Shown here: one piece after another, positions 4,508-61,196 of the stretch
Position numbering within the stretch: position 1 is the first letter of the stretch
Layout: every line of letters begins with the position of its first letter
NCBI GenBank assembly: GCA_041908065.1
Contig: JAYRGC010000050.1
Location: 21,718-85,717, forward strand
Length of the DNA: 64,000 bases
Direction: 5' to 3'
Source of the DNA: Alphaproteobacteria bacterium
GTDB taxonomy: Bacteria; Pseudomonadota; Alphaproteobacteria; UBA9219
The notes under the pieces: generated by a model
What the model was told of the DNA's origin: nothing
Seen by the model: the letters and a program-made list of their open reading frames with translations, nothing else
The model's database searches: none
Program-made: the position numbers and the translations under genes

Positions 4508-4529
4508 GCGTTCCTCATGGGTCTTCGAG

Positions 4530-7110: not shown

Positions 7111-7185
7111 GCCGTTGTAGCTCAGCGGTAGAGCAGGGCTTTCGTAAAGCCAAGGTCGGGGGTTCAAATCCCTCCAACGGCACCA
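7111..7185 (+). tRNA. tRNA-Thr (anticodon CGT); integration target of the downstream element
   Basis: Acceptor gccgttg/caacggc, anticodon loop ttCGTaa, T-loop ttcaaat, CCA encoded; its 3' 45 nt are repeated at 61151-61195. Confidence 0.8.
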
Positions 7186-7186
7186 T
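7141..7186 (+). repeat. attL: 46-bp core identical to 61151-61196 (3' half of tRNA-Thr)
   Basis: ttcgtaaagccaaggtcgggggttcaaatccctccaacggcaccat present at both positions. Confidence 0.8.
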
Positions 7187-7212
7187 TTTTATGTTGGAAT
7201 ATCAAAGCAATA

Positions 7213-7916: not shown

Positions 7917-8088
7917 GGGTTTCTTGACCACTGCATCGCCTCCTGAAAATTGCGAAACGAAAAGAGCGCGACAAGAAAAAACAGAAAATGACAACTTATG
8001 ACATTTACAAACGATTGATTTTTTCATTGTGCCAGATTACTGTGCGCTAATCAAGCCTGATTTTCAAGCCACCTTTCTGGAGGTCAAG

Positions 8089-9452: not shown

Positions 9453-9943
9453 ACTTGCCCAACCGCATTACGTTTGACCAGATCAAGGACTGGCCACCAA
9501 GCAAAATCGCCACACTCTCCGTCGAGGAACTGGCATGTCTTGCTGGCGATATTGCCGATGCTAAAGCCCACGTCGCGGCTGTCGAAAACAAGCTGCGCGG
9601 TGGTCTTGATCTCAAATATGGTCACCGCGCTTCGACGCAGCGTTCGAGCCTCGGCAAAGACACAGGCATCGTGCGTTTTGAAGACGGTACCTTCACTGTT
9701 GTGGCAGAATTGCCGAAGCGGGTGAAGTGGGATCAAGCGCTTCTGGCCGTGGCCGTCAAAACCATCGCCGAGCAATGGCGTGACGATCCGGCGCAGTATG
9801 TCGGTACGGAATACAAGGTCTCGGAAGCTGCGTACACGGCATGGCCGGATGTTTTGCGCAAACTGTTCGAGCCCGCCCGCACGGTCGAGCATGGCAAACC
9901 CGTCTATCGGCTTGAAAAGCAGAACGATGGAGGCCAATCATGA
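9449..9943 (+). CDS. Hypothetical phage protein
   Basis: ATGA-overlapped start at 9449 after GAAGGAGAG; no recognisable domain. Confidence 0.4.
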   Translation: MNLPNRITFDQIKDWPPSKIATLSVEELACLAGDIADAKAHVAAVENKLRGGLDLKYGHRASTQRSSLGKDTGIVRFEDGTFTVVAELPKRVKWDQALLAVAVKTIAEQWRDDPAQYVGTEYKVSEAAYTAWPDVLRKLFEPARTVEHGKPVYRLEKQNDGGQS

Positions 9944-19696: not shown

Positions 19697-19702
19697 AACC
19701 CT

Positions 19703-41660: not shown

Positions 41661-41963
41661 ATGCCTCAACCACAAACACAACCCGCTCCTCAAGAGCAGG
41701 AACAGGAGAACACGTCCATGAGTCCAAATGAACAAGTCGAATTTTTCCGCAGCATCGGACGCCTTGAGGCGCAAGTCGCCGCGCTGGCCTCCGCCATGAC
41801 CGAAATGAAAACGAAACTCGATGGCATCGACGCGCGGCTCGACCAGCTCGACCGTTTGGCGAACAGGTGGAAAGGCGGCTTTGCCGTCATCCTGACCCTC
41901 GGCGCCATCGGCGGTTTCGTGCTCGATAACGTCCTGCGCTGGTGGACAAGCAAGGGGTCTTGA
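41661..41963 (+). CDS. Hypothetical coiled-coil protein with C-terminal transmembrane helix (holin candidate?)
   Basis: C-terminal GGFAVILTLGAIGGFVL hydrophobic stretch. Confidence 0.35.
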   Translation: MPQPQTQPAPQEQEQENTSMSPNEQVEFFRSIGRLEAQVAALASAMTEMKTKLDGIDARLDQLDRLANRWKGGFAVILTLGAIGGFVLDNVLRWWTSKGS

Positions 41964-42087: not shown

Positions 42088-42399
42088 ATGAGCAAGAAAC
42101 TGGTCTACAAAGCCCTCGCCGACGATGCCAGCCGCACGGAAAAATGCTCCGATGAACATCTCGCGATTTTTATAGCGATCTTTGAACACGCCGTGAAATC
42201 GACCGACGGCATCATGGCGGACAGAGCCTGTTTCGACTTGTCGAACTTCGCCATCGCCAAGGAAGGCGGTCTTGAGCGCTTCCGGCTCACGCTGGAGAAA
42301 GACTGCATGAACCGCAGGGACGAGTGGTGCGGCACTTTCGCGCACGGCATGAAAACCCTGAAAGTGTTCGCTGCCTTGGAAGAGGAGAAAGAATTGTGA
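42088..42399 (+). CDS. Paralog 1 of a tandem triplicated ~100-aa protein family (unknown function)
   Basis: AGGAGG RBS; aligns with the next two ORFs (Cys near aa 19-20, F.LT.E, EW.G.F motifs). Confidence 0.6.
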   Translation: MSKKLVYKALADDASRTEKCSDEHLAIFIAIFEHAVKSTDGIMADRACFDLSNFAIAKEGGLERFRLTLEKDCMNRRDEWCGTFAHGMKTLKVFAALEEEKEL

Positions 42400-42431: not shown

Positions 42432-42740
42432 ATGAACAGGAAAGAGTTTTGGATCCCCACGGTCGACGATGTGCAGAACGAGGGGTGCAGCGAGTTGGAG
42501 AGAGAGGTTCTTCTCGACATCTTCGAAAGCAAGATGAAAGAGATGGCATGCACGGCGCTTGACAAAGGGGTCTACCAATCCATCGACACTTTCTTCCTCG
42601 CCCAAAAGAACGAGGTCAAGGGCTTCGCTCTCACGATGGAACGTTACCCGCATGCGGGATTCGAACAATGGATCGGCGTGTTCGAGGCCGATGCGAAACG
42701 GATGAGAGCCTTCGGAACTTTGGTGGAGCCGACCGATTGA
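42432..42740 (+). CDS. Paralog 2 of the tandem triplicated family
   Basis: GGAGAG RBS; FALTMERYPHAGFEQWIGVFEADAKRMRAFGTLVEP. Confidence 0.6.
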   Translation: MNRKEFWIPTVDDVQNEGCSELEREVLLDIFESKMKEMACTALDKGVYQSIDTFFLAQKNEVKGFALTMERYPHAGFEQWIGVFEADAKRMRAFGTLVEPTD

Positions 42741-42775: not shown

Positions 42776-43078
42776 ATGGAAAAGCAAATTTACAACATCG
42801 CAGACCATTACGACCTGAAAAATAGGGGGTGTACTGACAAAGAAATCGACGGCCTTTGCGAAATCTTCGAACGCCTGATGTTGGAACAAGCCAACGGATC
42901 GCTCCGCAAGGGCGTTTATGATCTGAAGGACTTTGAAAGCGCCGCACCTCTTAAGATCGCGGACTTTACCCTGACGATGGAGCGCCGCGACCATCCAGAC
43001 GGCCCAGAATGGAAGGGCGTGTTTGAAGCCGAAGGCCGCTCAATGGAGGTTTGGGGAACGGTCGAGCCAGCCGCTTAA
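42776..43078 (+). CDS. Paralog 3 of the tandem triplicated family
   Basis: GAGGGAGG RBS; FTLTMERRDHPDGPEWKGVFEAEGRSMEVWGTVEP. Confidence 0.6.
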   Translation: MEKQIYNIADHYDLKNRGCTDKEIDGLCEIFERLMLEQANGSLRKGVYDLKDFESAAPLKIADFTLTMERRDHPDGPEWKGVFEAEGRSMEVWGTVEPAA

Positions 43079-43156
43079 TCGCAACCGACAATTTAACCGA
43101 AGCCGCCGCCCGCGAGGGTTGGCGGCTTTTTCTTTGCTCAAACGAAAGGACGTGTC

Positions 43157-43819
43157 ATGACGAACAAAACGCCCCCGCGCGGCATCCGCAACAACAACCC
43201 CGGCAACCTGCGCCGTACCAAAGACCCGTGGCAGGGATTGGCAAAAGAGCAGACGGATCCCGAGTTCTTCACATTCGAGAATCCGGTTTATGGCATCCGC
43301 GCGCTGGCGCGCGTGCTGATCGCTTATCAGGATGACCGTGGCCTTCGCACCATCCGCCAGATCATCGGTCGTTGGGCTCCCGCCACCGAAAACGACACGG
43401 CTGGCTATATCGAGTCTGTCGCCAAATCCACCGGCTTCGCGCCCGATCAAACGCTCGACTTGCACGCCTACGCCGACCTGAAACCCCTTGTCGAAGCCAT
43501 CATCCAGCACGAAAACGGCCAACAGCCCTACACGGGCGCACAGATCGACAAAGCTTTGGTTCTGGCAGGTGTGGAGCCTCCGGCCAAGAACCTGCAACAC
43601 ACGCGCACTGTAAAGGGCGGAAAGGCCGCCACGGCGGCAACCGTGGGCCTTGGGGCGCTACAGGCCGTGCAGGACGGCCTCGCGCCCGCCCGCGACACGC
43701 TCCAAACGCTCGTGCCGTATCTGGACGTTGCCAAATGGCTGCTTCTGGCCATCACGCTGATCGGTATCGGCGTGATGATCTGGGCGCGAATCGACGACCA
43801 CCGGAAAGGGCTGCGCTGA
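43157..43819 (+). CDS. Putative endolysin / cell-wall hydrolase with C-terminal membrane anchor
   Basis: Sits immediately upstream of the Rz/Rz1 pair; GIRNNNPGNLR motif; C-terminal TM helix WLLLAITLIGIGVMIW. Confidence 0.4.
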   Translation: MTNKTPPRGIRNNNPGNLRRTKDPWQGLAKEQTDPEFFTFENPVYGIRALARVLIAYQDDRGLRTIRQIIGRWAPATENDTAGYIESVAKSTGFAPDQTLDLHAYADLKPLVEAIIQHENGQQPYTGAQIDKALVLAGVEPPAKNLQHTRTVKGGKAATAATVGLGALQAVQDGLAPARDTLQTLVPYLDVAKWLLLAITLIGIGVMIWARIDDHRKGLR

Positions 43820-44058
43820 TGTTTGCCATCCTCACAAGCTGGCTGTCCAGCAACATGCTCAAAATCATCGGTTGGGGAGCGATTGCCGCGTCAGTAGCCG
43901 CCGTCCTCTTCGGTGCGCGCCAGTCAGGTCGTACCGCCGAACGCTACGACCAACTTAAGAAAATCGTGGAGGTGAAAAATGCTCAGTTACGCGCAGCAAT
44001 GGACGCTCCTCGCACTCGCGCTGACCTTGTTAAGCGCCTGCGGGACGGCAAGTTCTAA
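43819..44058 (+). CDS. i-spanin (Rz-like)
   Basis: N-terminal TM (MFAILTSWLSSNMLKIIGWGAIAASVAAVLF) then coiled coil; ATGA-coupled to the endolysin; o-spanin gene embedded in its 3' end. Confidence 0.6.
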   Translation: MFAILTSWLSSNMLKIIGWGAIAASVAAVLFGARQSGRTAERYDQLKKIVEVKNAQLRAAMDAPRTRADLVKRLRDGKF

Positions 44059-44212
44059 CCCCGCCTGCGTCTGCCCGCCGATCAAGGCGTACAGCAAGGA
44101 ACAACAGATCAAGCTGGCCGTCGAGATCGAAGCCGCGCCGCCCGATGCGACGTTTCCGAATGTTGTGCAAGACTACGCCGTGCTGCGCGCGCAACTGCGC
44201 GAGTGCAAATGA
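43979..44212 (+). CDS. o-spanin (Rz1-like outer-membrane lipoprotein), embedded/overlapping
   Basis: Lipobox LLSAC at residues 17-21, Cys- and Pro-rich mature part; overlaps the Rz 3' end in another frame. Confidence 0.6.
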   Translation: MLSYAQQWTLLALALTLLSACGTASSNPACVCPPIKAYSKEQQIKLAVEIEAAPPDATFPNVVQDYAVLRAQLRECK

Positions 44213-44421
44213 TCGAGACGAAGGGGAAGGCGTTGAGATTGCTTGGGACACTTGAGCCGGAGGGGTGAGCAGTCGCCCCCACATCATTTTTCCTGTCAGG
44301 CCGCCCGCGATGAAACGCCGGAGGCTTTTTCTTTGACCAAAACCACAGGATATGGCATTGCGATCACAGAAAACCTTTAAAGTAGTGCAAGCTTTTATCC
44401 AGTGAAGGGGCACGGTAGCAA

Positions 44422-44727
44422 ATGAGCAACGTCATTGAAGGCTGTTTCGGCCCCAAGAAAACTCTGCGAATGAAGGCAGTGGCCTATCAACGCGACCTTA
44501 AGACAACGGCAAATCTCGGCTATGAAGAAAAGTTTGCTTCGCTTCTCGATCTGTGCGACGAGGCAGCATCCGGCGCATTTGATGTGGTGATTATCGCTTA
44601 TCCCGAAATCCTTGGTGACTCCGAGGAGGAGATCATCCGCAACCTGTCGCTGTTGTCGGATGCGGGACTGCTTCTGGTCGTCGCGCAGAAAAGCCCGCGC
44701 CTCATTGAGGCAGCGAATGTGCCGTAA
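44422..44727 (+). pseudogene. Degenerate serine recombinase (resolvase) N-terminal domain remnant
   Basis: MKAVAYQRDLKTT... resembles the resolvase start MKAVAYLRVSTxxQ but lacks the catalytic Ser and the HTH domain. Confidence 0.4.
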
Positions 44728-44735
44728 ATGACGAC

Positions 44736-45033
44736 TTCAGGCTAACGATCGAAAAACACCTCAACGCCGGAGCCGAACAATGGATCGGCATTTTCGTGGC
44801 CGAAGGTAAGAATCTGCGCTCCTCGCACTCGCACTCGCGCTGATCTCGTTAAGCGCCTGCGTAACGGCAAATTCTAATCCCGCCTATGTCTGCCCGCCAA
44901 TCAAGGAATATAGCAGGGAGTTTTAGGAGAGGCTTGCGGCAGAGGTTGAATCCGCACCTGAAGGTTCAGCGTATCCTGAAGCGCTTATGGATTACGGCGT
45001 CCTTCGAAATCAGGTGTCATTATGTCAGTAAGT
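44736..45033 (+). pseudogene. Decayed remnants: C-terminal fragment of a fourth paralog (44736-44841) fused to a degenerate copy of the Rz-3'/Rz1 region (44815-45033)
   Basis: FRLTIEKHLNAGAEQWIGIFVAEGKNL matches the paralog C-terminus; the next ~210 bp are ~75% identical (by eye) to 43995-44212 with an in-frame TAG. Confidence 0.55.
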
Positions 45034-45046
45034 GCAGCTATCTACG

Positions 45047-45658
45047 CTATGGTTCGCAAAGAGTACCGTTTTTGAAAGTCCGCACATTTTTTCTTTCAAA
45101 GAGACTCTCTACTCGTTGGATGGCTGCTAGGATGCTCGTCGTTTTGCTCTGAATCGTTTGCGTGACTAGGTGGTTGTCACCGTATCGTGAAATGATCTCG
45201 TCAAGACGCTCCTGAGCGCTGAGGTTTTGGCCCTCTGGCCCTGTGGTCATATCAGAAAACAGAAGTGCATCAGATGCATTAGAGCCTTCATTCGGAAAGG
45301 CGCTGAGACACTGTTCGAATCCGCGCAATTCGGCCTCGGAAGCTGCACAGGAATGATGTGCGACAAGTGCCGTAACACGATCCTCAAACCCTTCCTCCAA
45401 AAGCCATCGCGCCCCATCCAAGGGATGAAATTGGGTTTTGGCTATGTCTGGAGCGTATCCTATGTCATGAAGCCACGCGGCTACAGTCAAAACTCGAGCC
45501 TCGTCGGCATCGAATAAAATGGCCCCGATCTTTTCGGCTTTTGCCGCTACCGCTTGGACATGAAGCCAGCGTTTTGGCAACGGGGTCTCCAAATGATCTC
45601 GTGCAATCCGCCGAGCCTCCTCTACAGAACACACCTTTCGACTGCCTTTTTGCATCAT
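45047..45658 (-). CDS. HD-domain metal-dependent phosphohydrolase/oxygenase-family protein
   Basis: H...HD...H...H...D pattern (WLHVQAV, WLHDIGY, ALVAHHS); start uncertain (45658/45655/45721). Confidence 0.55.
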   Translation of the reverse strand: MMQKGSRKVCSVEEARRIARDHLETPLPKRWLHVQAVAAKAEKIGAILFDADEARVLTVAAWLHDIGYAPDIAKTQFHPLDGARWLLEEGFEDRVTALVAHHSCAASEAELRGFEQCLSAFPNEGSNASDALLFSDMTTGPEGQNLSAQERLDEIISRYGDNHLVTQTIQSKTTSILAAIQRVESLFERKNVRTFKNGTLCEP

Positions 45659-45683
45659 TTTCTCATTTACTCGCGCCCATGAA

Positions 45684-46340
45684 CTAATGGGATGCATCAG
45701 ACGCATACTTGTAATCGACAATCCAGTAGTAGGAAAGACGTTTAATGTTTATATCCGTTGCGATTCCTTTGAGTATATCCTTGAACTCCTGATCGCTCGG
45801 GAAATTTTTAAGAACCTCATGCTCGCTTCCGTCTGGCAGCTTGCGGGTTTGGTATGTATTGCCGCCGTCATCTGTTCTGGTGATGGGGTGGTTGCTGCCC
45901 TCAACATAGTGGTTGTCTATGAAAACGACTGTGGCTCCATGTTCCAGCTTCGAATGAAAAACATCTAAGAAACTTTTTATCTTTGCCCTTGGAATATGTG
46001 ACCACCAAAACCCAGCAAATCCCGCCGTGAATTTTCCGGAAACCTTTGAAAGCGAGTACGCGTCTTCTTGCATGAATCGTGCATTGGGCAGGTTCTTCTC
46101 TTGGGCGATTTCTAGAACTTCTGCGCTTTGATCTGTGCCCAAGATGGATGCAGCCGTTTTTGCACGCTCTGTCCAGTAACCGGTTCCGCAAGCGATTTCT
46201 AATACGTCATGCCCATTCAAGATTTTTTGTAACTCAAGGGAAAGATTTGCAAGATCCTCTTGTCTTTCCGGCTTTTCGTAGATTTTTTCATAAACTCGTG
46301 CGCGGCGGTTGTAATATTCCTTCAGGGCTTCATCGTTCAT
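45684..46340 (-). CDS. Class I SAM-dependent methyltransferase
   Basis: Motif I VLEIACGTGYWT, motif post-I ILGTDQS, motif II ARFMQEDA. Confidence 0.7.
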   Translation of the reverse strand: MNDEALKEYYNRRARVYEKIYEKPERQEDLANLSLELQKILNGHDVLEIACGTGYWTERAKTAASILGTDQSAEVLEIAQEKNLPNARFMQEDAYSLSKVSGKFTAGFAGFWWSHIPRAKIKSFLDVFHSKLEHGATVVFIDNHYVEGSNHPITRTDDGGNTYQTRKLPDGSEHEVLKNFPSDQEFKDILKGIATDINIKRLSYYWIVDYKYASDASH

Positions 46341-46379
46341 TTTTCATCTCCTTTTGCGGGGCAGGGTTTGAGCACTTTA

Positions 46380-47813
46380 TCACCCAAACCATAAAACAGA
46401 TACCGTTTTAACATTCGTATAAAAGCGCATAGCTTCTACCAATCCTTCTTTGTGACCCAATCCTGATCCCTTAACCCCGCCGAATGGCGACATTTCCGTA
46501 CGAAAACTAGGCACTTCTCCAATGTTGACGGATCCAACACGCAGTCTTTTGATGAATTGTAAGGCAGATGGCCAATGGCTCGTGCACACACCGGCGCTCA
46601 ACCCGAACTCCGTTCCATTGACGATACGTATCGCATCTTCGTTGGTCTTGAAACGAATTATGGGAGCAACCGGACCAAACGTTTCTTCTGCGACGAGGGT
46701 GCTTGCAGGAGAGACATGGTCAAGCACCGTCGGGTGATATAAGGCTCCTTGTCTTTTGTGTCCCAAAAGAAGTTTGGCACCATCCTTAATGGCTCCATCG
46801 ACCCTTTTTTCAATTTGGCGAGCGGAATTCTCGTCTATTACCGTTCCGACATCTGTTTCTTTATTGGAGGGATCTCCGCAAACTAGCTTTGCCGCACGTC
46901 CTACAACCTTGTTAACGAAATCATCTGCTTTTTCTTCTGCCACTAAAATCCGTTTTATGGCTGTACAACGTTGTCCAGAGTTTCCAAACGCGCCGCGCAC
47001 AGCAAGGTCGGCAGATTCATCTAAATTGGCGTCGGGAAGAACAATAAGCGCATCATTGCCTCCCAATTCAAAAAGGAGCTTTTTATACGAGGCTTTCTGG
47101 GCCAGAATCTTGCCTACAGCGGTGCTTCCTGTAAAAGCCAAGACTTCTACGTCTTTGCTCTGCACAAGTTCATCGGCCATTTCAACGGCTGGACCTGTCA
47201 CTACTGACAACATTTCCGGAGGTAGGCCGGATTCATGAAGTATCTTTGCAAAGCGATATGCGGAAAGCGGGGTTTTTTCCGACGGTTTCAAAATTACACA
47301 ATTATTCGTCGCAACGCCGGGAGCAACTTTATGTGCAACCTGACAAAGGGGATGATTGAAAGGAGTTATTACCCCAATAGATGTGACGGGTTCACGGAAG
47401 GTTAGAATTTTTCTTGTCTTCCCGTCACGATTGACATCTCCTGCATAAATATCTGCATCTTCCTGCAGACATAAAGCACTCGCAAAAGTCAAAACGTCCT
47501 GTGCGCGACAAACTTCGTTCTTTGCATCCTTCCAGCAAAGTCCCGTTTCAGCGATAACCAATTGGGCCAGATCTTCTGCGCAATCTTCCATTAATTGAGC
47601 CGCTTTTGAAAGAATTCGGCTGCGTTCGTGACGTGTTAATCCGGCCTCATAGTTTGCGGCAACATCGATAGCCTTCTGTATTTGCTCACGAGAAGCGGAA
47701 GAAACTTCCCCAGTTAACCCCTTTGTAAAGGGGTTATAGACGGATATGCGGTCAGTCGTTTCAATCTGATTGCCGCCAATAAGCAACGGTTCATAGTATG
47801 ATTGGTTCACCAT
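46380..47813 (-). CDS. NAD(P)-dependent aldehyde dehydrogenase (candidate phosphonoacetaldehyde dehydrogenase, PhnY-like)
   Basis: Catalytic Cys context GQRCTAIKRILV and Glu FELGGNDA; ATG MVNQ preceded by AAGGAG (the ORF-track M upstream is TTG). Confidence 0.7.
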   Translation of the reverse strand: MVNQSYYEPLLIGGNQIETTDRISVYNPFTKGLTGEVSSASREQIQKAIDVAANYEAGLTRHERSRILSKAAQLMEDCAEDLAQLVIAETGLCWKDAKNEVCRAQDVLTFASALCLQEDADIYAGDVNRDGKTRKILTFREPVTSIGVITPFNHPLCQVAHKVAPGVATNNCVILKPSEKTPLSAYRFAKILHESGLPPEMLSVVTGPAVEMADELVQSKDVEVLAFTGSTAVGKILAQKASYKKLLFELGGNDALIVLPDANLDESADLAVRGAFGNSGQRCTAIKRILVAEEKADDFVNKVVGRAAKLVCGDPSNKETDVGTVIDENSARQIEKRVDGAIKDGAKLLLGHKRQGALYHPTVLDHVSPASTLVAEETFGPVAPIIRFKTNEDAIRIVNGTEFGLSAGVCTSHWPSALQFIKRLRVGSVNIGEVPSFRTEMSPFGGVKGSGLGHKEGLVEAMRFYTNVKTVSVLWFG

Positions 47814-47838
47814 TTCGATCTCCTTAAAAATCAATTAC

Positions 47839-48999
47839 TCATTCGCCACCAGTACCTGAAGGACATTCGAGTTTGTTTGTTCTTATTGCTGCCTTCAAAG
47901 GTCGTTTTGCCGCATAGGCTGTAAGTGCTTCATCTACAAAACCATGAAGTTGAGCAAGCCCATGATTAGAGTGGACATCAATGCCATGTAATCCGACTTT
48001 TTTATGCAGTCTCTCGATGCCTGACTCGAGATTGCAAACCGGTCCACAAACTATTGGCGTGGTGTATCCCCACTCTTTAAGAAAATGCATTGCACCAAAC
48101 GCCCCCAAAGCATCATTTGCCGAAAGAACAACGAGGGCAACATTTTGCCGAAACTCAGGTTTTATTAAAGCTTCTGGTATGCCCGCCCAAATGATATCTC
48201 CTCCGGCCTCTGCCACAACGACATCTGTGTCTAGAGATGCGGCCCGTATTACGTCGACGGCTACATTTCCGGCTCTATTTGAATCGCCATAAGTTGAAGG
48301 CAGGCCCATATCAACAAAATCAACTGCGCGGATGGCTCCGCCATCTTTTAAGTGTGCAATGTCACGCAGCCGACCGGTTCCGCTGATTTTTGCAGCGCCA
48401 ACCCGATGGAATTTCGATAGGTGTTCTATTATTCGGCGAGTAACCGTGGTCTTGCCGCATTCTGAAGACGTTCCAACAACCATGACAACGGGGGAGATCA
48501 AGTCAGCCTTGGCCTTTGAATTCAACTGGAGCAAATTCATATTCTTGCCGTTCTCATTTAGGATGCCCAACAGTCTTACACGAGCAGCCGGAATGGGCTG
48601 AACCTTGGCTGCAGCATTGCGGCTGTAAGAAGGATATGAGGTGCAGATCCCGACTCCTCCAGCATTTGCCAAAATATCGGCTTCACCCGGAATAGCGAGG
48701 CCTCCCTCTGGGACATGCCCGACGAGAGACACACCAGAATCTCTGTGGCAAACCGTTCCGATGAATCTTTCGCCCTTTTTCAAATCGTGCAGACTGACAT
48801 CCGAGCGTTCAATGGCTGTAATAGCCCCCTTTTCAGACAGCATTTCTGCAACTACTAAATCGCCTTCGTTGGCCTTACCCTCAACTAAAGAAGCTGCCTT
48901 AACGCGGGCAACTGCTTCTTGGCTCCGAAGGTTTGAAGGAAAAACATCAATTTTAATATCCGCCACGCGAACGTCTTTTTTAGAAATGTCATTTTGCAT
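47839..48999 (-). CDS. Uncharacterized P-loop NTPase (DUF1611/CobQ-BioD-like fold)
   Basis: Walker A VVGTSSECGKTTV at mid-protein; start ATG MQND after AGGAAA. Confidence 0.4.
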   Translation of the reverse strand: MQNDISKKDVRVADIKIDVFPSNLRSQEAVARVKAASLVEGKANEGDLVVAEMLSEKGAITAIERSDVSLHDLKKGERFIGTVCHRDSGVSLVGHVPEGGLAIPGEADILANAGGVGICTSYPSYSRNAAAKVQPIPAARVRLLGILNENGKNMNLLQLNSKAKADLISPVVMVVGTSSECGKTTVTRRIIEHLSKFHRVGAAKISGTGRLRDIAHLKDGGAIRAVDFVDMGLPSTYGDSNRAGNVAVDVIRAASLDTDVVVAEAGGDIIWAGIPEALIKPEFRQNVALVVLSANDALGAFGAMHFLKEWGYTTPIVCGPVCNLESGIERLHKKVGLHGIDVHSNHGLAQLHGFVDEALTAYAAKRPLKAAIRTNKLECPSGTGGE

Positions 49000-49025
49000 A
49001 AGTTCTTTTCCTTTCAACAGTTGTA

Positions 49026-50057
49026 CTATCCCACATCAAATGTGCCGATTTTCTTGGGTCTAAACCATCTTACGGGTCTGAAGCTTTTCTCCAGTTCATG
49101 GTCCACACCAAGAATCAAGGAGAACAGAGCCATCCTGATAAGCAAGCCATTGTCGGTTTGCTTGAAAATTACCAGTCTGGGATCCCCATTAAGGTCCGTG
49201 CTTAAATCATATGCATCGGACCTGCTGTCGCGTGGCAAAGGATGCATGATGACCACGTCATCTTTTGCGTACGCCTGCACGATGTTTTGCTTAATTTGGT
49301 GATTTGGCCTCAGGCTTGTGATTAGATTTTGCTCTTCAAGCCGTTCTTTTTGAAGCCTAGTTGCGTAAATAACATCTGCAACCTTAAGCCCCTCCTCAAG
49401 AGTCCCCGCCTCGGTAAAGGAGTGTCCAAATTTAGATGCATATTTGATGACTTCTTGTGGAAGGCCAAAATGTTCGGGATGAACAAGAACGTATTTTATG
49501 TCCTTGTATAGGCACATAAGATAAACAAGCGAGTGAACAGTGCGGCCATACTTCAGATCGCCGGTAAGAGCGATTGTCGAGCCATCAACAGGTTTTCCTC
49601 TTTTTTCGAGTTCCTCTTGAAGCGTGTAAACATCCAGCAGTGCCTGCGTCGGATGCTCTTCAGGCCCACTCCCTCCATTGATAACGGGAATGTTTGTGGC
49701 ACTGCAAAATTCCTTTATTGCAGCCGGATCTGGGTGACGGATCAGGATGATATCGTAAAATCCACTCGTTACCCGACTCGTGTCAAAATAAGATTCTCCC
49801 TTAACAATTGAGGTAATGCCTTCTCCTTGAGTGTGGGACACGGCTCCACCGAGACGCATGAAGGCCGCATCGAAACTCAACCGCGTTCTTGTGCTGGGTT
49901 CAAAGAACATGCTGCCCAGCACGGCTCCGCGCAAAATGTCTGTGCAGACATCTCCCGTCGCTATAGGCTTAACGAGTTTGGCAAGTCTGAACAATTCGTC
50001 CAAATCTTCTCTGTCGACGCTTTTTACCGAAAGAAAATGTTTGCCTAAGAATCCCAT
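49026..50057 (-). CDS. Aspartate/ornithine carbamoyltransferase-family protein (ATCase/OTCase fold) with C-terminal extension
   Basis: Carbamoyl-phosphate-binding STRTR (FFEPSTRTRLSF), HPTQ (HPTQALLD), HPLP (IMHPLPR) motifs. Confidence 0.65.
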   Translation of the reverse strand: MGFLGKHFLSVKSVDREDLDELFRLAKLVKPIATGDVCTDILRGAVLGSMFFEPSTRTRLSFDAAFMRLGGAVSHTQGEGITSIVKGESYFDTSRVTSGFYDIILIRHPDPAAIKEFCSATNIPVINGGSGPEEHPTQALLDVYTLQEELEKRGKPVDGSTIALTGDLKYGRTVHSLVYLMCLYKDIKYVLVHPEHFGLPQEVIKYASKFGHSFTEAGTLEEGLKVADVIYATRLQKERLEEQNLITSLRPNHQIKQNIVQAYAKDDVVIMHPLPRDSRSDAYDLSTDLNGDPRLVIFKQTDNGLLIRMALFSLILGVDHELEKSFRPVRWFRPKKIGTFDVG

Positions 50058-50070
50058 GGTCAGCTCCGTT

Positions 50071-51225
50071 TCAAGGCGTGAATTTCGAGCTAAAGGATAC
50101 CATGTGTTCCCTAAACATTAAAGCGCGCTCAGGGAGATCAAGTTTTGGCCTTTCCACAACCTTTATGGTTAACGGTGCGATCCTAATATGTAAAAAATTA
50201 GGGCCGTCAAAAGGATCAATTGAATGCAGCGCTTCTTTTACAGCTTCTTTGCCAGAGCAAGACCAAACAGAACGATAGCCGCAAGAGAGGGCAACGCCGG
50301 AGAAATCCACCGCATTCGCATTGCTGGGTTGTCCACCAGTTGACTCGAAGATGCCGTTATCGAGCACGACATGGGTAAGATTGCGGGGGGACATTTTCCC
50401 GATGGTTGCGCAGTTTCCCATTTTCATGAGCAATGCGCCGTCACCGTCTAACACGGTGACGGGGTGTGCGCAGTTCATCGCGACGCCCAATCCAATTGCC
50501 GAAGCGTGCCCCATTGAACCAGCCATATAAAAATTGTTGGCCTTATCATGGCATTTGTATGCTTCACGATACGCATAACCGGTCGTCGCAATGACTGCGT
50601 GATTGCTAAACTCCTCCATGATTTGGGCTATGGTAGAGGCTCTATCTCCAATAGGCCCAGCAGTTACGCGTTTCACCGTTGGTCTTTCTCCCGAGGAAAT
50701 TAGAGAGGGCATTGTGCTCTGCGTTTTCGCATTCTCGATAGTCTTGGGATTTATCAAAAACGCTCGGCTATTCCTGTCGGCGAGTTCCTGTTTTGCGCAT
50801 CTCATCTCAGCAAGAGCATCTAGCCATTCACATGGCAGAACGGTTGTTTTAACTCCAAGTAGCTCCAAGAGCGGGCCGGAAGTTCTTCCCATAATCTCGT
50901 GCTGGGCCTCATCCTTAAATCCAACTGCGCCGCGCATAGAGATAAATAATGACACGGGTATCTGGTAGGGTTGGCAAAGAGACGCTATAGGATTCACCAT
51001 GTTTCCAAGACCTGAATTTTGACAAATCACTCCTGCTTGTTTTCCGGCCAGCCAGTATCCGGCAGCAATTGCACAAGCTTCTCCTTCCGTGGTTGCCGGT
51101 ATGTACCGAAGTAAATCTGTCGTTTCCAGATCTTTAAAAACAGACGACAAATTGGAACATGGCACTCCAATCAGAGCAGCATGATTCTGAGCTACCACTT
51201 CGATGAAATCCTCCGATTTGATCAT
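50071..51225 (-). CDS. ppd: Phosphonopyruvate decarboxylase (TPP-dependent)
   Basis: ~384 aa, TPP-enzyme pyrimidine- and PP-binding halves, ATGA-overlapped with the PEP mutase gene as in ppm-ppd cassettes. Confidence 0.6.
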   Translation of the reverse strand: MIKSEDFIEVVAQNHAALIGVPCSNLSSVFKDLETTDLLRYIPATTEGEACAIAAGYWLAGKQAGVICQNSGLGNMVNPIASLCQPYQIPVSLFISMRGAVGFKDEAQHEIMGRTSGPLLELLGVKTTVLPCEWLDALAEMRCAKQELADRNSRAFLINPKTIENAKTQSTMPSLISSGERPTVKRVTAGPIGDRASTIAQIMEEFSNHAVIATTGYAYREAYKCHDKANNFYMAGSMGHASAIGLGVAMNCAHPVTVLDGDGALLMKMGNCATIGKMSPRNLTHVVLDNGIFESTGGQPSNANAVDFSGVALSCGYRSVWSCSGKEAVKEALHSIDPFDGPNFLHIRIAPLTIKVVERPKLDLPERALMFREHMVSFSSKFTP

Positions 51226-52106
51226 GGCATTAGTTCCTTTGGTTTTTGTTGTCTGTTGTATTTTCTTTCCTCTGATGGCAGTAAATCCATGCCAGTGAGG
51301 GACAGCACTTCCTTGACGGTTACCATGTTTGAAACACCGCGTGGATCTTGTTGTTCAAGTAACTCTCTTGACGCATTTTTTAAGGCCAAGATTTGCGCAC
51401 GCAGAAGCTGATTGGCCCATATGATACCTTTGACGCTTTTCAATCGCGGAATAACAGGAGCGATAGAGCTATAGTAAGTCGTGGGGACAATCACGATAGG
51501 ATTTGGTTTATCCCAGTCTTCTATAAAACGAACGATATCAGACGCTTCTTTAGATTTCGAGTGAATCAGAATTGCGTCGGCACCTGCTTCTGCATAAAGA
51601 TTGGCGCGTTCTTTAGCTACATCAAGGCCTTGTCCTACGATTAAAGCCTCAACCCTGGCGACAAGAAACATGTCGTTTCCGAGCGCATCTTTTATGGCCC
51701 GTATCTTTCCGCAGAAAGTTTCCTTGTCTTCGAGCTCTTGACCTGCGGACATGAGAGAGTTTCTCTTCGGAAAAACCTGATCCTCAATGGATATGCCTGA
51801 GGCCCCAGCTTTGAAAAGTTTCTTGGCAAAGAACCGAGCAATATTGAAATCGCCATGCCCATTATCTCCATCGACAAGGATAGCGGCTTGTGTTGCGGAG
51901 GCGATGTTCTCTGTCGCAGCGACGACCTCGGCCCAAGACAATTCTCCAAAATCACGACGTCCTTGAACGGTGCTTAATCCCAGGCTTGAGACCCAAATGG
52001 AATCAAAGCCAGCCTGTTCTGCGACTATAGCCGACAGCGCATCATGGCATCCAATAATGTATGTCGGGGCCGTATTCGACAACTGCGTTCTCAATAAATT
52101 TGTCAT
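51222..52106 (-). CDS. ppm: Phosphoenolpyruvate phosphomutase (ICL/PEPM superfamily)
   Basis: WVSSLGLS, ILVDGDNGHG (DxD), and IEDQVFPKRNS spacing E-x5-K-x-N-S as in PEPM active site rather than ICL KRCGH; AAGGAGG RBS. Confidence 0.7.
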   Translation of the reverse strand: MTNLLRTQLSNTAPTYIIGCHDALSAIVAEQAGFDSIWVSSLGLSTVQGRRDFGELSWAEVVAATENIASATQAAILVDGDNGHGDFNIARFFAKKLFKAGASGISIEDQVFPKRNSLMSAGQELEDKETFCGKIRAIKDALGNDMFLVARVEALIVGQGLDVAKERANLYAEAGADAILIHSKSKEASDIVRFIEDWDKPNPIVIVPTTYYSSIAPVIPRLKSVKGIIWANQLLRAQILALKNASRELLEQQDPRGVSNMVTVKEVLSLTGMDLLPSEERKYNRQQKPKELMP

Positions 52107-52146
52107 TTTATCCTCCTTAAAATTAACGATTCAGATTTTGTTACAC

Positions 52147-52920
52147 TTAACCGAACATGGGGTTTGAAAACGTGAGGCATCGTCCTGCGGACAACCTCCC
52201 ACAAAGCTCCCCCAATGATCCCCCTTTATTGGCAGCAGACAAAAACGATGGAAGGCCTGCTACGACAACATCCACAAATGGATATCCGGTTCTCTCTCTT
52301 TTGTTGTCTACGATAAGCGCTGTCCACATCCCACATTTTTTGGAATAAAAAAGGTTTTCAGGCGTATCATCGACCATGATTGTTCTGGCAGCAGAGGCCT
52401 TCATCTGAGACAGCACATATGTAAAGGGGGCGATGGAATCTGATTTCCTTTGGAACCCAATTTCTTCCAATGTGAAAATAGATTCGTCTGGAAAATAGTT
52501 TTTGATACCAAGCGTGTTGAGAACCCGTGTTGCCCAAGACCTGTTTCCGTGAGTAAGCATCGCGCACGGAATGTTGAGGGTAGAGAATAGAGCAGGAAGA
52601 TCGCCCCTGCTTAAAACATTCTCTTCCTGCAAGCGATTGTGATAAGAGCGATGTAGCTCAGTCAGCGAAATGCCGCATGCTGTGAATGCCTCGTAATACG
52701 TTTTATGCTTTTTACGCGAGGCAAGAGCCATTTGTCTTGCTTGTTTTTCAGTCAGCAACGGGACAAGATCCATAGCTACTTGTGTCGCCACGCTAAAACA
52801 ATGATTTTGAAAGACAGGCGTGTCTTCAAACATGACTCCATCGTTGTCGAAAACGATTAGGTCTATCTTCTTGCTTGTACAAGAAGAACTGTTCTTAGAA
52901 ATTTCGTTCGACTGCATCAT
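52147..52920 (-). CDS. HAD-superfamily hydrolase/phosphatase
   Basis: Motif I LIVFDNDGVM (DxDG), first gene of the operon after an AT-rich promoter region. Confidence 0.6.
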   Translation of the reverse strand: MMQSNEISKNSSSCTSKKIDLIVFDNDGVMFEDTPVFQNHCFSVATQVAMDLVPLLTEKQARQMALASRKKHKTYYEAFTACGISLTELHRSYHNRLQEENVLSRGDLPALFSTLNIPCAMLTHGNRSWATRVLNTLGIKNYFPDESIFTLEEIGFQRKSDSIAPFTYVLSQMKASAARTIMVDDTPENLFYSKKCGMWTALIVDNKRERTGYPFVDVVVAGLPSFLSAANKGGSLGELCGRLSAGRCLTFSNPMFG

Positions 52921-57354: not shown

Positions 57355-58035
57355 TTGCAAATGATTACAGCGAGACAAATTCGAGCGGCTAGAGGCCTTT
57401 TGGGATGGGACGCCGTGGTTCTTGCCCGAAAAACAGGGCTGACCAAGGAAACAATCTCGCGGATTGAGATAGAACAAGTGCGCCCGCAAGAGCGTACATT
57501 ACTCAAGATTCTGCGTGTTTTCAACGAGGCGGGTGTAGAGTTCACCCCCAATACAGGCGTGCAACTTAAGCCGCAAAATGTCGAGGTTCTCGAGGGAACA
57601 ACGGGGTTCCTTCGTTTTTATGATTTCGTTTATAACCACTTAAACCAGTACGGGGGCCTCGTTTGCGTGAGCGGCGTCAACGAAAAGTTGTTCGTCAAAT
57701 ATCAAGGTGACTTTGCAGACGTTCATATGAACAGAATGGCAGATCTAGTTAAACGCCGCGAAGATCTTATGATGCGAATTTTGGTAGAAGAAGGCGATTA
57801 TAATTTCGTAGCGTCCTCATACGCTCAATACAGGTGGCAAGCTAAAGCGTATTTTTCTCCTGCCCCCTTCTATGTTTTTGGAGATAACCTTGCTCTCATC
57901 TCTTTCGCGCATGAGCCGTCGCCATTAGTTATTTTTATCAAGTCAGCAAGTTTAGCAGACGCTTACCGGCACGCTTTCGAACTTGCTTGGGCGCAATCTA
58001 TTGAGCCGCCGTCGAGAGAGGAGAGCGCGAAATGA
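57355..58035 (+). CDS. XRE-like HTH regulator with C-terminal domain, translationally coupled to the EgtD-like methyltransferase
   Basis: ITARQIRAARGLLGWDAVVLARKTGLTKETISRIE; 4-nt overlap with the next gene. Confidence 0.6.
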   Translation: MQMITARQIRAARGLLGWDAVVLARKTGLTKETISRIEIEQVRPQERTLLKILRVFNEAGVEFTPNTGVQLKPQNVEVLEGTTGFLRFYDFVYNHLNQYGGLVCVSGVNEKLFVKYQGDFADVHMNRMADLVKRREDLMMRILVEEGDYNFVASSYAQYRWQAKAYFSPAPFYVFGDNLALISFAHEPSPLVIFIKSASLADAYRHAFELAWAQSIEPPSREESAK

Positions 58036-59051
58036 GCTTTCTTGGCGGAAGTATAGACTTTTTTACAGGAACGCGATCTTCTCACATGGGTTCGTACCAG
58101 TATGTAGAACATGCTGGCACTCGAAACGGCAAAAGCATGTCCGGTGCGAAGTTGTGGGCTGAGATTGAAGCTGAAGAGCTAAAGGCAACTGAAACAAATT
58201 TGTTCAGTGCCGAAGAACGAATTTTGCGAAGTGTGGCAAAGGATGTTGGTGCTTACTTTCCAGATTGTTCCCCGATCCTTGAAATGGGAACAGGCACGCC
58301 AAATGCGTTTAAAAAGAAAACACTTCTTATTATGATGGCACTTCGAAGTACGGAATATATCTGCGTGGATGAATCTAGCGAATTTTTGAAGGGCCTAATC
58401 TCAAATAAGGCTCTTTCCAGATTTAAGGTTAGGCCGATTCTGGACGATTTCTTCGAAGGGGATAAACTCTATTTTGATGATCCTGAACGAGATGCTCTTA
58501 TTTGTATGTTTGGCAGCACCATCGGTAATATCGTCGCTCCTTTGGGCGATGCACCGCCAAGAGACGCCCTGATTGCACATTTGTCCATGATAGCGCAGAC
58601 AATCAACAAAGGTGGTCTTTTGGTATCATTCGACGCAGATATGAATGGGGAAAAGGTTGCAGCCTTTTATGCAAGACAGGCCCTTTTTCAGTTAAATACA
58701 TTCTTTCGTATGGCGGTGGAGTTACCGATAAAGGGAGACTTTGATCCCTATGCATTTGAGTACAAGCCGATGTGGTTTGCTCAATCTGGGACGCTAGCAC
58801 ATATGGCTATCGTCGCGCGCGATATGTCCTTCGAACTTGGCGGAAAGAGTATCTCTTTGGTTGCTGGACAAAAGTTGCACATGAAAAACTCATTCAGGTT
58901 CTCTCCTGCCTTCTTCTCCGATTGTTGTGAGAGTGCTGGGTTTGAGATTCTTAAAACGTGGAGAGATCCGTCTTTGACCAATGTTTATCTTTTGAAAAAG
59001 AAAACCGTTGCCGTTTCGCAAACTTCTGCAATCGTGAAGGCTGCATGTTAA
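58032..59051 (+). CDS. EgtD-family (Methyltransf_33, histidine N-alpha-methyltransferase-like) SAM-dependent methyltransferase
   Basis: ILEMGTGTPNAFKKKTLL (cf. EgtD LVELGSGTSEKTRMLL), YICVDESSEFL, and LICMFGSTIGNIVAP (cf. VVFLGSTIGNLTP); C-terminal KNSFRFSP...AGFEILKTWRDP. Confidence 0.65.
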   Translation: MSFLGGSIDFFTGTRSSHMGSYQYVEHAGTRNGKSMSGAKLWAEIEAEELKATETNLFSAEERILRSVAKDVGAYFPDCSPILEMGTGTPNAFKKKTLLIMMALRSTEYICVDESSEFLKGLISNKALSRFKVRPILDDFFEGDKLYFDDPERDALICMFGSTIGNIVAPLGDAPPRDALIAHLSMIAQTINKGGLLVSFDADMNGEKVAAFYARQALFQLNTFFRMAVELPIKGDFDPYAFEYKPMWFAQSGTLAHMAIVARDMSFELGGKSISLVAGQKLHMKNSFRFSPAFFSDCCESAGFEILKTWRDPSLTNVYLLKKKTVAVSQTSAIVKAAC

Positions 59052-59457: not shown

Positions 59458-60957
59458 TTACGCTTGACTCACGACAAATGAAGCGGGCGACCCCGCGTTA
59501 ACCATGCCGTATGGCTGATCCTGAATGGGGGCGTCTTTCCCCACAAACTGATCCAAATCCTCCTTTGTGTATCGCACGCTGTTGCCGATTTTGACGAAGC
59601 TGGGGCCGCATTTGCGCCAGCGCCAGTTTTCGAGGAGGCGAGGATTGACGTTCAGGTATGTGGCGGCCTGTGCAGCGGTCATGAAACGTGGCAAGGCCCC
59701 ATTTGCCGTGAGCTGAAGTTTTTCCGCCAACGGTGATGCAACAGGCGGATCAACACACACTGCCGTTCCGTCGATGGTGATGCTTTCGCCTGGCTTGGGC
59801 AGGGCCAAAAGCCCGCCCAGTTCGTCCGTGATTTTGCTGGCCGCTTCGAGTACTGGATTGATGGCCAGATGGGCATAGCGGGCCGTCGTTTGCGTCTGCG
59901 TGTGGCCAAGCAACCGCCCGATCATCGGCAGGCTCATGCCCATCGCCACGGCGTTTGACGCAAAGGTATGCCGAAGGTCGTGAATGCGGACGTCCTCAAT
60001 CCCCGCCCATTTGCGGATATGCCGCCATGTCGTTTGCAGGTCGTTGATCGGTTTGTCGACGTGGTGATCCGAGCAAATCAGATAAGGATTTTCCGGTTTG
60101 CGTGGTAGGTGGCGCAAGAGGTCGATGGCCGTCCGTCCCAGATGAATGAACTTCGGCCCCGTTTTGGAATCCGGCAGACGGATTATGCCTCGGTCAAGAT
60201 GGACGTATTCCCATTTGCAATCCCTAATTTCCCCGAGACGCGCGCCGGTAAGGATTAAGAGCCGAAAGGCAGCAATGGCATAAGGCGAACTCAAACCCGC
60301 TTCCTCGGCCATGCGAAGCGTATCGCCGAGGCGGCGCATTTCGTCGGCGGAGAGGAAGCGCTCGCGCTTGTTCTCCTTGTACTTCTTGACATGACGGCAC
60401 GGGTTCGAGTTTTCCGGGCGCAGGCCCCAATCCTCCGCCGTGTTGAACATTTTGGAGAGCAGCGTCAGCGCGTGGTTCGCGCTGGAGGGAATCTTGTTCA
60501 TGCCGTGATGCAACTGCAGGATATGGGCGCGTGTGACTTCGGTAATCTTTAAGCGACCGAGGGAAGGCACAATCTGGCTTTTGATGATCCCTTCGTAACG
60601 GAGACGCGTACTGGGCTTCAGATGCACGTCCATGTGGAGTTTCTGGAAGCGTTCGCAAAACTCTTTCATATCGGGACAGGCCGCGAAGGCGTGCCGATCT
60701 TCCATCGGATCCTGTCCATCGCGGATAGAGGCGAGGGTCTTGAGCGCCTTGTCTCGCGCTTGTTCCGCCGTGATCGCTGGAAAGTAGCCCAGCGTCATGC
60801 GGCGGGTGCGGGTGCCAACGCGGTATTGCAGGATGAGGTTCTTCCTGCCCGAGGTCAGGACGCGAAGGCCGAAGCCGGACAGTTCGTCGTCGAAGACAAA
60901 ATAGTCTTTGCTCCGAACCTCCGCCGCCTCGATCACTCTTTTCGTCAACCGCGTCAT
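59458..60957 (-). CDS. int: Tyrosine-type site-specific integrase with fused C-terminal AlpA/Xis-like HTH domain
   Basis: Catalytic-domain motifs HDLRHTFAS...LLGHTQTQTTARYAHL; extra C-terminal ~110 aa containing MTAAQAATYLNVNPRLLENWRWRKCGPSFVKIGNSVRYTKEDLDQFV; start ATG 60957. Confidence 0.8.
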   Translation of the reverse strand: MTRLTKRVIEAAEVRSKDYFVFDDELSGFGLRVLTSGRKNLILQYRVGTRTRRMTLGYFPAITAEQARDKALKTLASIRDGQDPMEDRHAFAACPDMKEFCERFQKLHMDVHLKPSTRLRYEGIIKSQIVPSLGRLKITEVTRAHILQLHHGMNKIPSSANHALTLLSKMFNTAEDWGLRPENSNPCRHVKKYKENKRERFLSADEMRRLGDTLRMAEEAGLSSPYAIAAFRLLILTGARLGEIRDCKWEYVHLDRGIIRLPDSKTGPKFIHLGRTAIDLLRHLPRKPENPYLICSDHHVDKPINDLQTTWRHIRKWAGIEDVRIHDLRHTFASNAVAMGMSLPMIGRLLGHTQTQTTARYAHLAINPVLEAASKITDELGGLLALPKPGESITIDGTAVCVDPPVASPLAEKLQLTANGALPRFMTAAQAATYLNVNPRLLENWRWRKCGPSFVKIGNSVRYTKEDLDQFVGKDAPIQDQPYGMVNAGSPASFVVSQA

Positions 60958-61150
60958 GCTTTCCTGTCTCAGCTTGTGTCCTCGATCTCGCGCCGTTTTT
61001 TGGAAGCACTGTGGAAGCAAGAGGCTTCAAAACGGGGCGAAAACCTGATAGGCTCATGAAGCTGAAAAGGCCGCCGGAAGTCAACTAACGTATTGAAATA
61101 TCGTAGTAAATAGAAACGCTTCGCAATCCTTCAAAAACGGTTATATTGGG

Positions 61151-61196
61151 TTCGTAAAGCCAAGGTCGGGGGTTCAAATCCCTCCAACGGCACCAT
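61151..61196 (+). repeat. attR: 46-bp duplicate of the tRNA-Thr 3' half
   Basis: Identical to 7141-7186. Confidence 0.8.

Follow-up and report, generated by a model that had tools for sequence, protein, structure and literature searches.

In a 64,000-nt window of contig JAYRGC010000050.1 from an Alphaproteobacteria bacterium (the window being the whole stretch of DNA that we analyzed), the lysis genes of a temperate prophage are followed by a short block of gene fragments, one small gene that we name orf101, and a phosphonate-synthesis operon of foreign composition. Our analysis suggests, with a probability that we put at about 0.68, that the block at 44213-45031 is the gutted lysis module of a second, related temperate phage (B), fused to the resident phage (A, approximately 7.2-44.2 kb). 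The original prediction had placed a recombination scar at the boundary between prophage and foreign cargo, and had raised a second degraded phage as a possible source. Homologies, junctions and a break in composition bear out the scar, and the remnants resemble alleles from elsewhere in the phage family more closely than they do the resident ones, which speaks for the second phage.

Anatomy of the scar

The resident lysis genes and the scar behind them comprise the following features.

42088-42399, 42432-42740 and 42776-43078, plus strand: three intact paralogs of ~100 aa, taken from the list of open reading frames (ORFs); hidden Markov model (HMM) of the family, E 1e-37 to 1e-49
43157-43819, plus strand: resident endolysin, intact (phrog_873, E 2.7e-67)
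43819-44058, plus strand: resident Rz-like inner-membrane spanin, 79 aa, with an N-terminal membrane helix (phrog_27122, E 1.2e-5; phrog_1026, Rz-like spanin, E 0.026)
43979-44212, plus strand: resident Rz1-like lipoprotein with lipobox LSAC and stop codon TGA at 44210-44212 (phrog_26778, E 2.1e-16; Pfam LysC/Rz1-like, E 0.0093, below cut-off)
44213-44268, plus strand: probable paralog tail remnant; the frame 44212-44265 reads (I)ETKGKALRLLGTLEPEG, followed by TGA at 44266-44268
44269-44421, plus strand: spacer, made of a decayed hairpin/T-run spacer copy, a stretch resembling a ribosome-binding site (RBS) and endolysin start up to ~44375, and the conserved 53-nt leader of orf101 (44369-44421)
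44422-44727, plus strand: orf101, an intact gene of 101 aa from a conserved family of 96-101 aa; cassette core 44369-44728 (360 bp)
44730-44819, plus strand: paralog body remnant (DDFRLTIEKHLNAGAEQWIGIFVAEGKNLR), HMM E 4e-9, profile positions 62-91 of ~100
44817-44877, plus strand: second Rz remnant, the last ~19 codons (APRTRTRADLVKRLRNGKF) with its stop at 44875-44877, from the frame translation aligned to resident and relatives
44817-45031, plus strand: second Rz1 remnant, codon 9 to stop, with lipobox LSAC kept and a final TAA at 45029-45031
45032-45046, no strand: gap of 15 nt between the stop of the dead Rz1 and that of the first convergent cargo gene (45047-45049), where composition breaks

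The second Rz/Rz1 piece is homologous to the resident pair. Using blastn within the window, we found that 44828-44919 matches 44009-44100 at 85.9% over 92 nt (E 9.4e-26), so that the similarity claimed in the original prediction is significant, and a repeat search with MAFFT alignment extends the match to 44817-45031 versus 44004-44212. A tblastn search of the Rz1 remnant against 18 relatives gave E values down to 7e-22. Its frame, which opens after a stop without ATG, GTG or TTG, reads ALLALALALISLSACVTANSNPAYVCPPIKEYSREF, TAG (44924-44926), ERLAAEVESAPEGSAYPEALMDYGVLRNQVSLCQ and the final TAA; codons 1-8 are gone, a 6-nt CTCGCA insertion and one nonsense codon are present, and there is no frameshift. 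The piece had been described as a decayed copy of 43995-44212 with an in-frame stop. Homology and stop both hold, whereas the piece represents a different allele, as detailed below, and ends at 45031 rather than 45033.

Directly upstream lies a piece of the ~100-aa paralog family. By searching the family HMM against all stop-to-stop six-frame peptides of the whole window, we recovered 44730-44819, and the outcome did not change when the paralogs of the window were left out of the profile; in the window self-blastn, 44766-44803 matches paralog 2 (42654-42691) at 84% (E 3e-6), a match that the repeat search and MAFFT alignment lengthen as well. A fourth paralog fused to the Rz/Rz1 piece had indeed been proposed, as its C-terminal 35 codons. 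What is present is instead ~30 internal to C-proximal codons, since the last ~9 paralog codons are missing. Another piece, at 44213-44268, is probably a paralog tail, to judge from its sequence and register. It begins directly after the resident Rz1 stop and is the top non-family HMM match in the window, in the correct C-terminal register, at an E of only 0.3-1.5. Compared with the end of the paralog in the related locus L093 (FEAKGKKLRLFGMLDPNG, then stop), it agrees at 11 of 17 positions (tblastn E 0.004, small database). In addition, 44213-44239 matches a paralog remnant upstream of orf101 in locus L004 at 20 of 24 nt, followed by a 31-nt indel and then by a block of 87.6% identity. The spacer, in turn, resembles the one after paralog 3 (44300-44366 versus 43105-43166: 71.6%, E 0.009, self-blastn), and over 44300-44375 it aligns with the hairpin/T-run spacer of paralog 3, its RBS and the first endolysin codons. 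The long-loop hairpin after paralog 3 itself folds at -23.6 kcal/mol (z = -2.4) and was missed by a simple terminator scan.

These pieces meet at three sharp junctions: J1 at the resident Rz1 stop (44212/44213), J2 between the orf101 cassette and the paralog body (44729/44730), and J3 between the paralog body and the Rz/Rz1 remnant, within CTG-CGC-TCC (44814-44822), with few shared bases at most. Two of the three sit at stop codons.

Given that the remnants carry few disabling mutations and that the identical arrangement recurs in a second public assembly (L011), the Rz1 and paralog stretches could be imagined to serve orf101 or the convergent cargo operon, be it as a 3′ untranslated region, a small RNA or a regulatory element. 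We consider this very improbable. An Rfam search of 43.9-45.3 kb returned nothing at E ≤ 1, and folds of 45030-45100 on either strand were no better than shuffles (z = -0.4 and -1.1), on which grounds a structured RNA in 43.9-45.3 kb was rejected. Moreover, neither fragment has a start codon; beyond 1-2 nt past its stop, the orf101 cassette is no longer homologous to L001 and L004, which shows that what lies downstream is not conserved along with it; and few mutations fit a recent origin equally well. The Rz1 and paralog remnants are non-coding scars today, and the two short "ORFs" here are debris.

The order of the fragments is that of the phage family. A tail fibre gene, a small membrane protein, the endolysin, Rz and Rz1 are common to 19 IMG/VR contigs and to several contigs of metagenome-assembled genomes or other assemblies, at 50-85% identity (57-80% for the resident endolysin versus those of the 19 IMG/VR contigs). 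Across the family the module runs from the paralog(s) through a spacer, the endolysin, Rz and the overlapping Rz1 to cargo on the opposite strand, and the position of the Rz-like gene is kept in all relatives. The resident paralogs are flanked by the small membrane protein (41661-41963) and the endolysin, and 1-2 copies lie in the equivalent slot of relatives L014, L021, L073, L074, L077 and L093. This paralog family is rare (8 clusters among 5.8 billion proteins) and matched no Pfam, PHROG or NCBIfam family. In intact phages it is confined to that slot, in 0-3 copies; fragments outside it occur in the scar and upstream of orf101 in L004-L007. Because the scar presents, from left to right, a paralog tail, spacer, endolysin start, gap, Rz/Rz1 ends and opposite-strand cargo, we read it as what remains of a B lysis module.

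Two-component Rz/Rz1 spanins with overlapped gene architecture were reportedly characterized by Summer et al. in 2007 and Kongari et al. in 2018. The resident pair resembles them in that a small N-anchored membrane protein and an LSAC lipoprotein, overlapping it in a different frame, come directly after the endolysin. It differs in its weak matches to spanin HMMs (E 0.009-0.05) and in the shortness of the Rz-like protein; that the two genes form a spanin pair is suggested mainly by their architecture. The remnant keeps the lipobox and the C-terminal part of such a lipoprotein but, lacking a start codon and carrying the in-frame TAG, is no longer a spanin gene.

Elsewhere in the resident module, the endolysin ends in a hydrophobic C-terminal helix (VAKWLLLAITLIGIGVMIWARI), and a C-terminal membrane helix is likewise present, along with a coiled-coil region, in the 100-aa protein at 41661-41963. 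We recognized no separate canonical holin in this lysis region, and lysis triggering in this phage family may be unusual.

Divergent alleles, the cargo slot and the proposed fusion

The remnants lie directly downstream of the resident genes, and the first 92-103 nt of the Rz1 remnant are 82-86% identical to the resident copy, so that a tandem duplication of the resident paralog-through-Rz1 segment, with decay of the second copy, has to be weighed. The 5′ stretch, however, is the doubly coding Rz/Rz1 overlap and is equally similar (79-83%) to L013, L073 and L015; over its 103 nt, nucleotide identity is ~82% both to the resident copy and to L013 and L073. Over the remaining 113 nt at the 3′ end, the remnant has 50% nucleotide identity to the resident copy versus 61-64% to L013 and L014. 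At the protein level it is 52% identical to the resident Rz1 versus 62% to that of L013, and in the mature part 54% versus 66% (L013) and 61% (L014 and L021). A protein-database search with the repaired remnant found its best intact alleles at 68-71% identity. Nonsynonymous divergence (dN) is 0.37 to the resident gene versus 0.23 to L013; the synonymous divergence (dS) between remnant and resident is saturated and dN/dS is 0.17, indicating that the two diverged as working genes for a long time. The paralog body, likewise, is nearer to the paralogs of L073 and L093 (64-68% identity) than to any resident paralog (52% to paralog 2). On these allele distances, the saturated dS and the low dN/dS, we rejected duplication and decay in situ, which has hardly any likelihood left. 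The remnants are instead different alleles and did not arise by copying of the resident genes; their source appears to be a related phage from the family to which the resident belongs. The death of the Rz1 remnant was nevertheless recent, as it consists of a lost start and one nonsense codon, with no frameshift.

Wherever a relative has sequence past Rz1, that place is taken in each case by unrelated genes, which mostly run on the opposite strand and begin at the Rz1 stop or only a few bases from it. In L093 the first cargo gene begins 8 nt past the end of Rz1, and in L013/L091 and L092 the two overlap; the cargo in the window abuts its dead Rz1 as cargo abuts intact Rz1 in these relatives. 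Seven relatives carry entirely different cargo at this place (L013/L091, L014, L015, L073, L077, L092 and L093), including the following.

L013/L091: an AAA_13 ATPase and type III restriction-modification genes
L014: RelA/SpoT-like and VirD4-like genes
L073: a biosynthetic set (tRNA-synthetase-like, racemase, radical SAM, aminotransferase, AMP-binding)
L077: DUF87, SIR2, T5orf172, helicase and MmeI genes
L093: restriction-modification genes and a helicase

None of the cargo genes of the window is shared with any relative examined.

The original prediction had called for a search among related prophages for a second lysis cassette, and one was found in L092 (GCA_054403735.1, contig JBQVBU010135787.1), whose double-cassette region spans 3437-5592. 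A complete endolysin-Rz-Rz1 cassette (93.6% identical to L091) is followed there by a minus-strand gene for a 112-aa secreted protein, and then by a second cassette that starts at endolysin codon 144, has full Rz and Rz1 and continues into L091-type cargo (99.95% to L091). The two cassette copies are 87% identical to each other. L092 is an independent and younger example of the same scar architecture.

Based on these observations, we propose the following course of events. In phage B, the orf101 cassette would have displaced the endolysin before the A-B fusion, so that the endolysin and most of Rz came to be replaced by the cassette and, behind it, by a 90-bp piece of another paralog. Illegitimate recombination would then have joined A and B exactly at the stop of A Rz1. 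The likeliest route would be tandem lysogeny at a tRNA-Thr gene, or infection of a cell that held a defective B prophage. Everything between A Rz1 and the B paralog tail would have been lost, namely the downstream end of A, any middle attachment site (att) and the left arm of B. From B there would survive the paralog tail, the spacer with the trace of the endolysin start, the C terminus of Rz, Rz1 from codon 9 and the cargo 15 nt downstream, while A would supply all up to its own Rz1 stop. The product would have one att pair, one integrase, one working lysis module and the B cargo. Given that the dead cassette is directly adjoined by low-GC DNA at 45032-45046, the scar would mark the join of two phages and not the first insertion of the cargo: the original prediction was right to see here a boundary with the cargo, whereas the cargo was probably already attached to the B cassette when the join was made.

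Illegitimate recombination at the boundaries of genes gives rise to mosaic junctions in lambdoid phages, and recombination between related prophages in one cell yields hybrid or defective prophages, as among the lambdoid prophages of E. coli O157; a mosaicism model for temperate phages is said to go back to Hendrix and Juhala. The scar has much in common with these systems: breakpoints at or within 2 nt of stops (44212/44213 and 44729/44730), fragments of related-phage genes beside intact ones, alleles that differ across the junction, and a parallel event in L092. It differs in being a partial second lysis module tied to a cargo slot, with an unrelated live gene in its gap, and in its setting, the host being an alphaproteobacterium (as judged from relatives, which include metagenome-assembled genomes of Rhodospirillaceae) and the phage family not classical lambdoid. 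Temperate phage genomes also have fixed sites at which cargo, moron or defence genes gather, among them the b region of lambda and the hot spots of P2 and P4. The fixed slot behind Rz1, with unrelated accessory genes in each relative and cargo of foreign composition, fits that pattern; unlike in those cases, the cargo of the window is an eight-gene phosphonate pathway and not defence, and its acquisition left a piece of the donor lysis module behind. The scar is ordinary phage mosaicism at a cargo hot spot, if unusually legible, and leaves the understanding of mosaicism unchanged. Its value is as a dated and readable record of how accessory cargo is swapped in one temperate phage family, with the donor cargo arriving together with the tail end of the donor lysis module, a pattern that recurs in L092. 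There is more potential in two by-products, the conserved and integration-module-linked orf101 family, which matches no known fold or family, and a phosphonate pathway within the att sites of a prophage.

The orf101 family

The gene in the gap of the dead module had been taken for a serine-recombinase-like N-terminal fragment without its catalytic Ser. This does not hold: orf101 is an intact, conserved gene. Among 5.8 billion proteins we found 13 further clusters at 60-90% identity, 12 of which are 96-101 aa long; the other (P0009) has 85 aa and is N-terminally shorter, and orf101 aligns over its full length with all homologues but that one. Its dN/dS versus orthologues is 0.04-0.20, indicating purifying selection, and its GC content at third codon positions (GC3) is 0.62. 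The alignment of the 14 members has 25 invariant columns, among them Y22 and R24. The catalytic Ser is absent from all 14, with Leu or Phe at that place, and the "LGD" stretch has no Arg.

What orf101 shares with the serine recombinases of PF00239 is a loose motif, M-K-A-V-x-Y-x-R near the N terminus and L-G-D near residue 65. In contrast to them, it has no DNA-binding domain, and the whole family measures 96-101 aa. Pfam gives only sub-threshold matches, to DUF3052 (E 0.027) and Resolvase (PF00239, E 0.086), the latter at 13.4 bits versus a cut-off of 23.3 and over profile positions 49-101 of 145 only. There was no match in NCBIfam, PADLOC or PHROGs, and a search of the family profile against PDB sequences found no resolvase; nor was there a match to the resolvase fold. 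A degenerate serine-recombinase fragment was therefore ruled out by the Pfam score, the missing Ser, the full length and the selection on the gene. For annotation, this means that the small conserved orf101 should not be dismissed as a resolvase pseudogene.

The family occurs in seven unrelated mobile contexts, adjoining integrases, excisionase-like genes or repressors; outside the window, the distance from orf101 to an integrase, AlpA, resolvase or repressor gene is 0.1-2.5 kb. These contexts include the following.

L001/L002: orf101, AbiEi, AbiEii and an integrase
L004-L007: orf101 adjoining HTH_17 and HipA
L008: orf101 downstream of a resolvase-DUF6429 gene, near ParB/RepB
L069: AlpA, orf101 and an integrase
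L070/L071: orf101 divergent from an integrase, near a TrwC relaxase
L072: orf101 adjoining an S24 repressor

At the DNA level, the identity of 44369-44728 to L001-L003 is 89.8%; that of 44268-44729 to L004-L007, which carry a frameshifted paralog remnant, the same spacer and orf101 in a non-phage setting, is 87.6%. A scan of JGI metagenomes with the orf101 alignment yielded 12 loci, none of them in a lysis or integrase-520 context. We regard orf101 as a live cassette that travels independently and as a working accessory gene. A guess, and one of low confidence, is that it works together with the integration and lysogeny module that usually adjoins it.

The composite element, its cargo and its integrase

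The prophage and the cargo are enclosed by one pair of att sites.

7141-7186, plus strand: attL, the 3′ 45 nt of tRNA-Thr(CGT) plus one base (exact 46-nt direct repeat, E 5e-21)
61151-61196, plus strand: attR, the second copy of the 46-nt repeat
45047-52920, minus strand: low-GC phosphonate-synthesis operon of eight genes (Pfam, NCBIfam; GC3 0.40-0.48)
59458-61020, minus strand: tyrosine integrase with arm-binding, SAM-like and catalytic domains and a C-terminal HTH_17 (Pfam), adjoining attR

The pair bounds a 54-kb element made of prophage, scar, low-GC cargo and integrase. From attL, it runs through an S24 repressor (7377-8027), genes for replication, packaging, head and tail (helicase, primase, methyltransferases, terminase, portal, protease, capsid, tape measure and tail), the lysis module, the scar, the phosphonate operon, a block of intermediate GC at 53-57 kb, a low-GC pair of helix-turn-helix (HTH) and Methyltransf_33 genes, and the integrase. 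No third att copy was found in the window, nor was a tRNA-Pro-linked island end near 44-45 kb; a GTTCGAATCC-like match at 45313 lies inside the HD gene and was set aside as a chance match. With one att pair and one integrase, prophage and cargo appear from the sequence to be a single integrated element.

In order, the operon encodes an HD protein, a methyltransferase, a phosphonoacetaldehyde dehydrogenase-like protein, a 392-aa P-loop protein, a carbamoyltransferase (aspartate carbamoyltransferase-like), phosphonopyruvate decarboxylase, phosphoenolpyruvate (PEP) mutase and an HAD hydrolase. The decarboxylase (TIGR03297) scores above its NCBIfam cut-off, and the mutase and the dehydrogenase just below theirs. 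The original prediction had noted, by eye, a sharp fall in GC, and this is confirmed by measurement: in 1-kb steps from 43-44 kb onward, GC is 0.60, 0.55, 0.48, 0.47 and 0.45, and GC3 passes from 0.61-0.77 in phage genes to 0.40-0.48 in the cargo, with the break at 45032-45046. The nearest relatives of the HD protein in genomes of GTDB are all from Actinomycetota, at 43-49% identity. Together with the entirely different cargo that relatives carry in the slot, the GC3 contrast supports a secondary acquisition of DNA of foreign composition, which had been put forward as a possibility. Phosphonate clusters are horizontally transferred and sited in genomic islands (PMC8931226). Our search of the full-text literature found no paper that joins "prophage", "phosphoenolpyruvate mutase" and "phosphonate biosynthesis". 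Lying inside the att sites of a prophage with a full set of replication, packaging, head, tail and lysis genes, the operon may be horizontally mobile.

The integrase is 67% identical to that of the non-phage island L001/L002 and 63% to that of L061, on the phage contig that also holds L015. These relationships bear on a different history, in which the DNA at ~44.2-61.2 kb (orf101, cargo, integrase and attR) was an L001-type integrative island that entered tRNA-Thr first, with a phage integrating beside it afterwards, the middle att and the phage integrase being lost, and the lysis fragments being debris of earlier encounters. L001 and L002 indeed combine orf101 (89%) with the 67% integrase, oriented relative to each other as in the window, and phage genes are absent within 6 kb; orf101 keeps company with integration and repressor genes elsewhere. 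The integrase/att cassette of the phage relative L061 is inverted compared with the window (its integrase reads towards the repressor, opposite to the window relative to the backbone), and the integrase of the window is host-like in GC3 (0.69), the cargo being foreign. Set against this, the fragments are still ordered and oriented as in a phage lysis module and the dead Rz1 abuts the cargo as live ones do; the phage family itself uses this integrase family, as L061 shows; the window has no third att; and L092 demonstrates phage-phage fusion within the family. We therefore regard a phage beside an island as unlikely, and it differs from a fusion of phages A and B mainly in how degraded B is taken to have been.

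Several points weigh against the fusion itself. We found neither a relative that keeps the ancestral B arrangement intact nor one that has A alone. Searches for a donor gave only two short endolysin matches by blastn in phage GenBank, and the GTDB genome scan with the first cargo gene, with its exclusively actinomycetotal matches, gave none; the JGI metagenome scan with orf101 returned no phage context. Taken by itself the paralog tail is not significant, the trace of the endolysin start amounts to a few codons, and the contig of L092 is metagenomic and short. As three junctions are required, more than one event must have taken place, and the order proposed for the events is a reconstruction. 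Finally, orf101 and the 67% integrase occur together in the non-phage L001/L002 and the L061 integrase is inverted, from which it follows that B may already have been island-like when A arrived.

Going beyond the fusion of phages A and B, and tentatively, since we doubt more than we believe it, the 54-kb composite could still be an inducible phage that was loaded, by fusion with a second phage, with a complete phosphonate operon in its slot behind Rz1, with orf101 representing a new accessory family of integrase/excisionase modules. If so, this would be a case of phage-borne transfer of a carbon-phosphorus natural-product or surface-modification pathway, and the orf101 cassette would have had enough mobility to take the place of the endolysin in the lysis module of a phage.

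As to the ends of related elements, L061 has a minus-strand tRNA gene at the start of its contig (~68-145), ~170 nt upstream of the integrase, and the L001 island ends (~9815-9865) in a 3′ fragment of a CAT-anticodon tRNA and not of tRNA-Thr, suggesting that related integrases of the family use different tRNA targets. A GAAATATC(A/G)-type motif (e.g., GGAATATCAAAG) sits just inside the att sites of three elements that share the integrase family (window 7196-7209 and 61093-61106; L001 ~9880-9895; L061 ~44-58), and these motifs may be arm-type integrase binding sites.

The low-GC HTH_3 and Methyltransf_33 genes beside the integrase form a two-gene module (57355-59051) with weak PADLOC matches to RmrA and mad2. 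L004/L007 have a distant version of this module (35% and 27% identity; L004 141-1498), ~2 kb away from orf101. Within the prophage, two adjacent DNA methyltransferase genes are found at 18327-20926, the second of which is fused to a ParB-like nuclease domain (phrog_498, E 3e-169).

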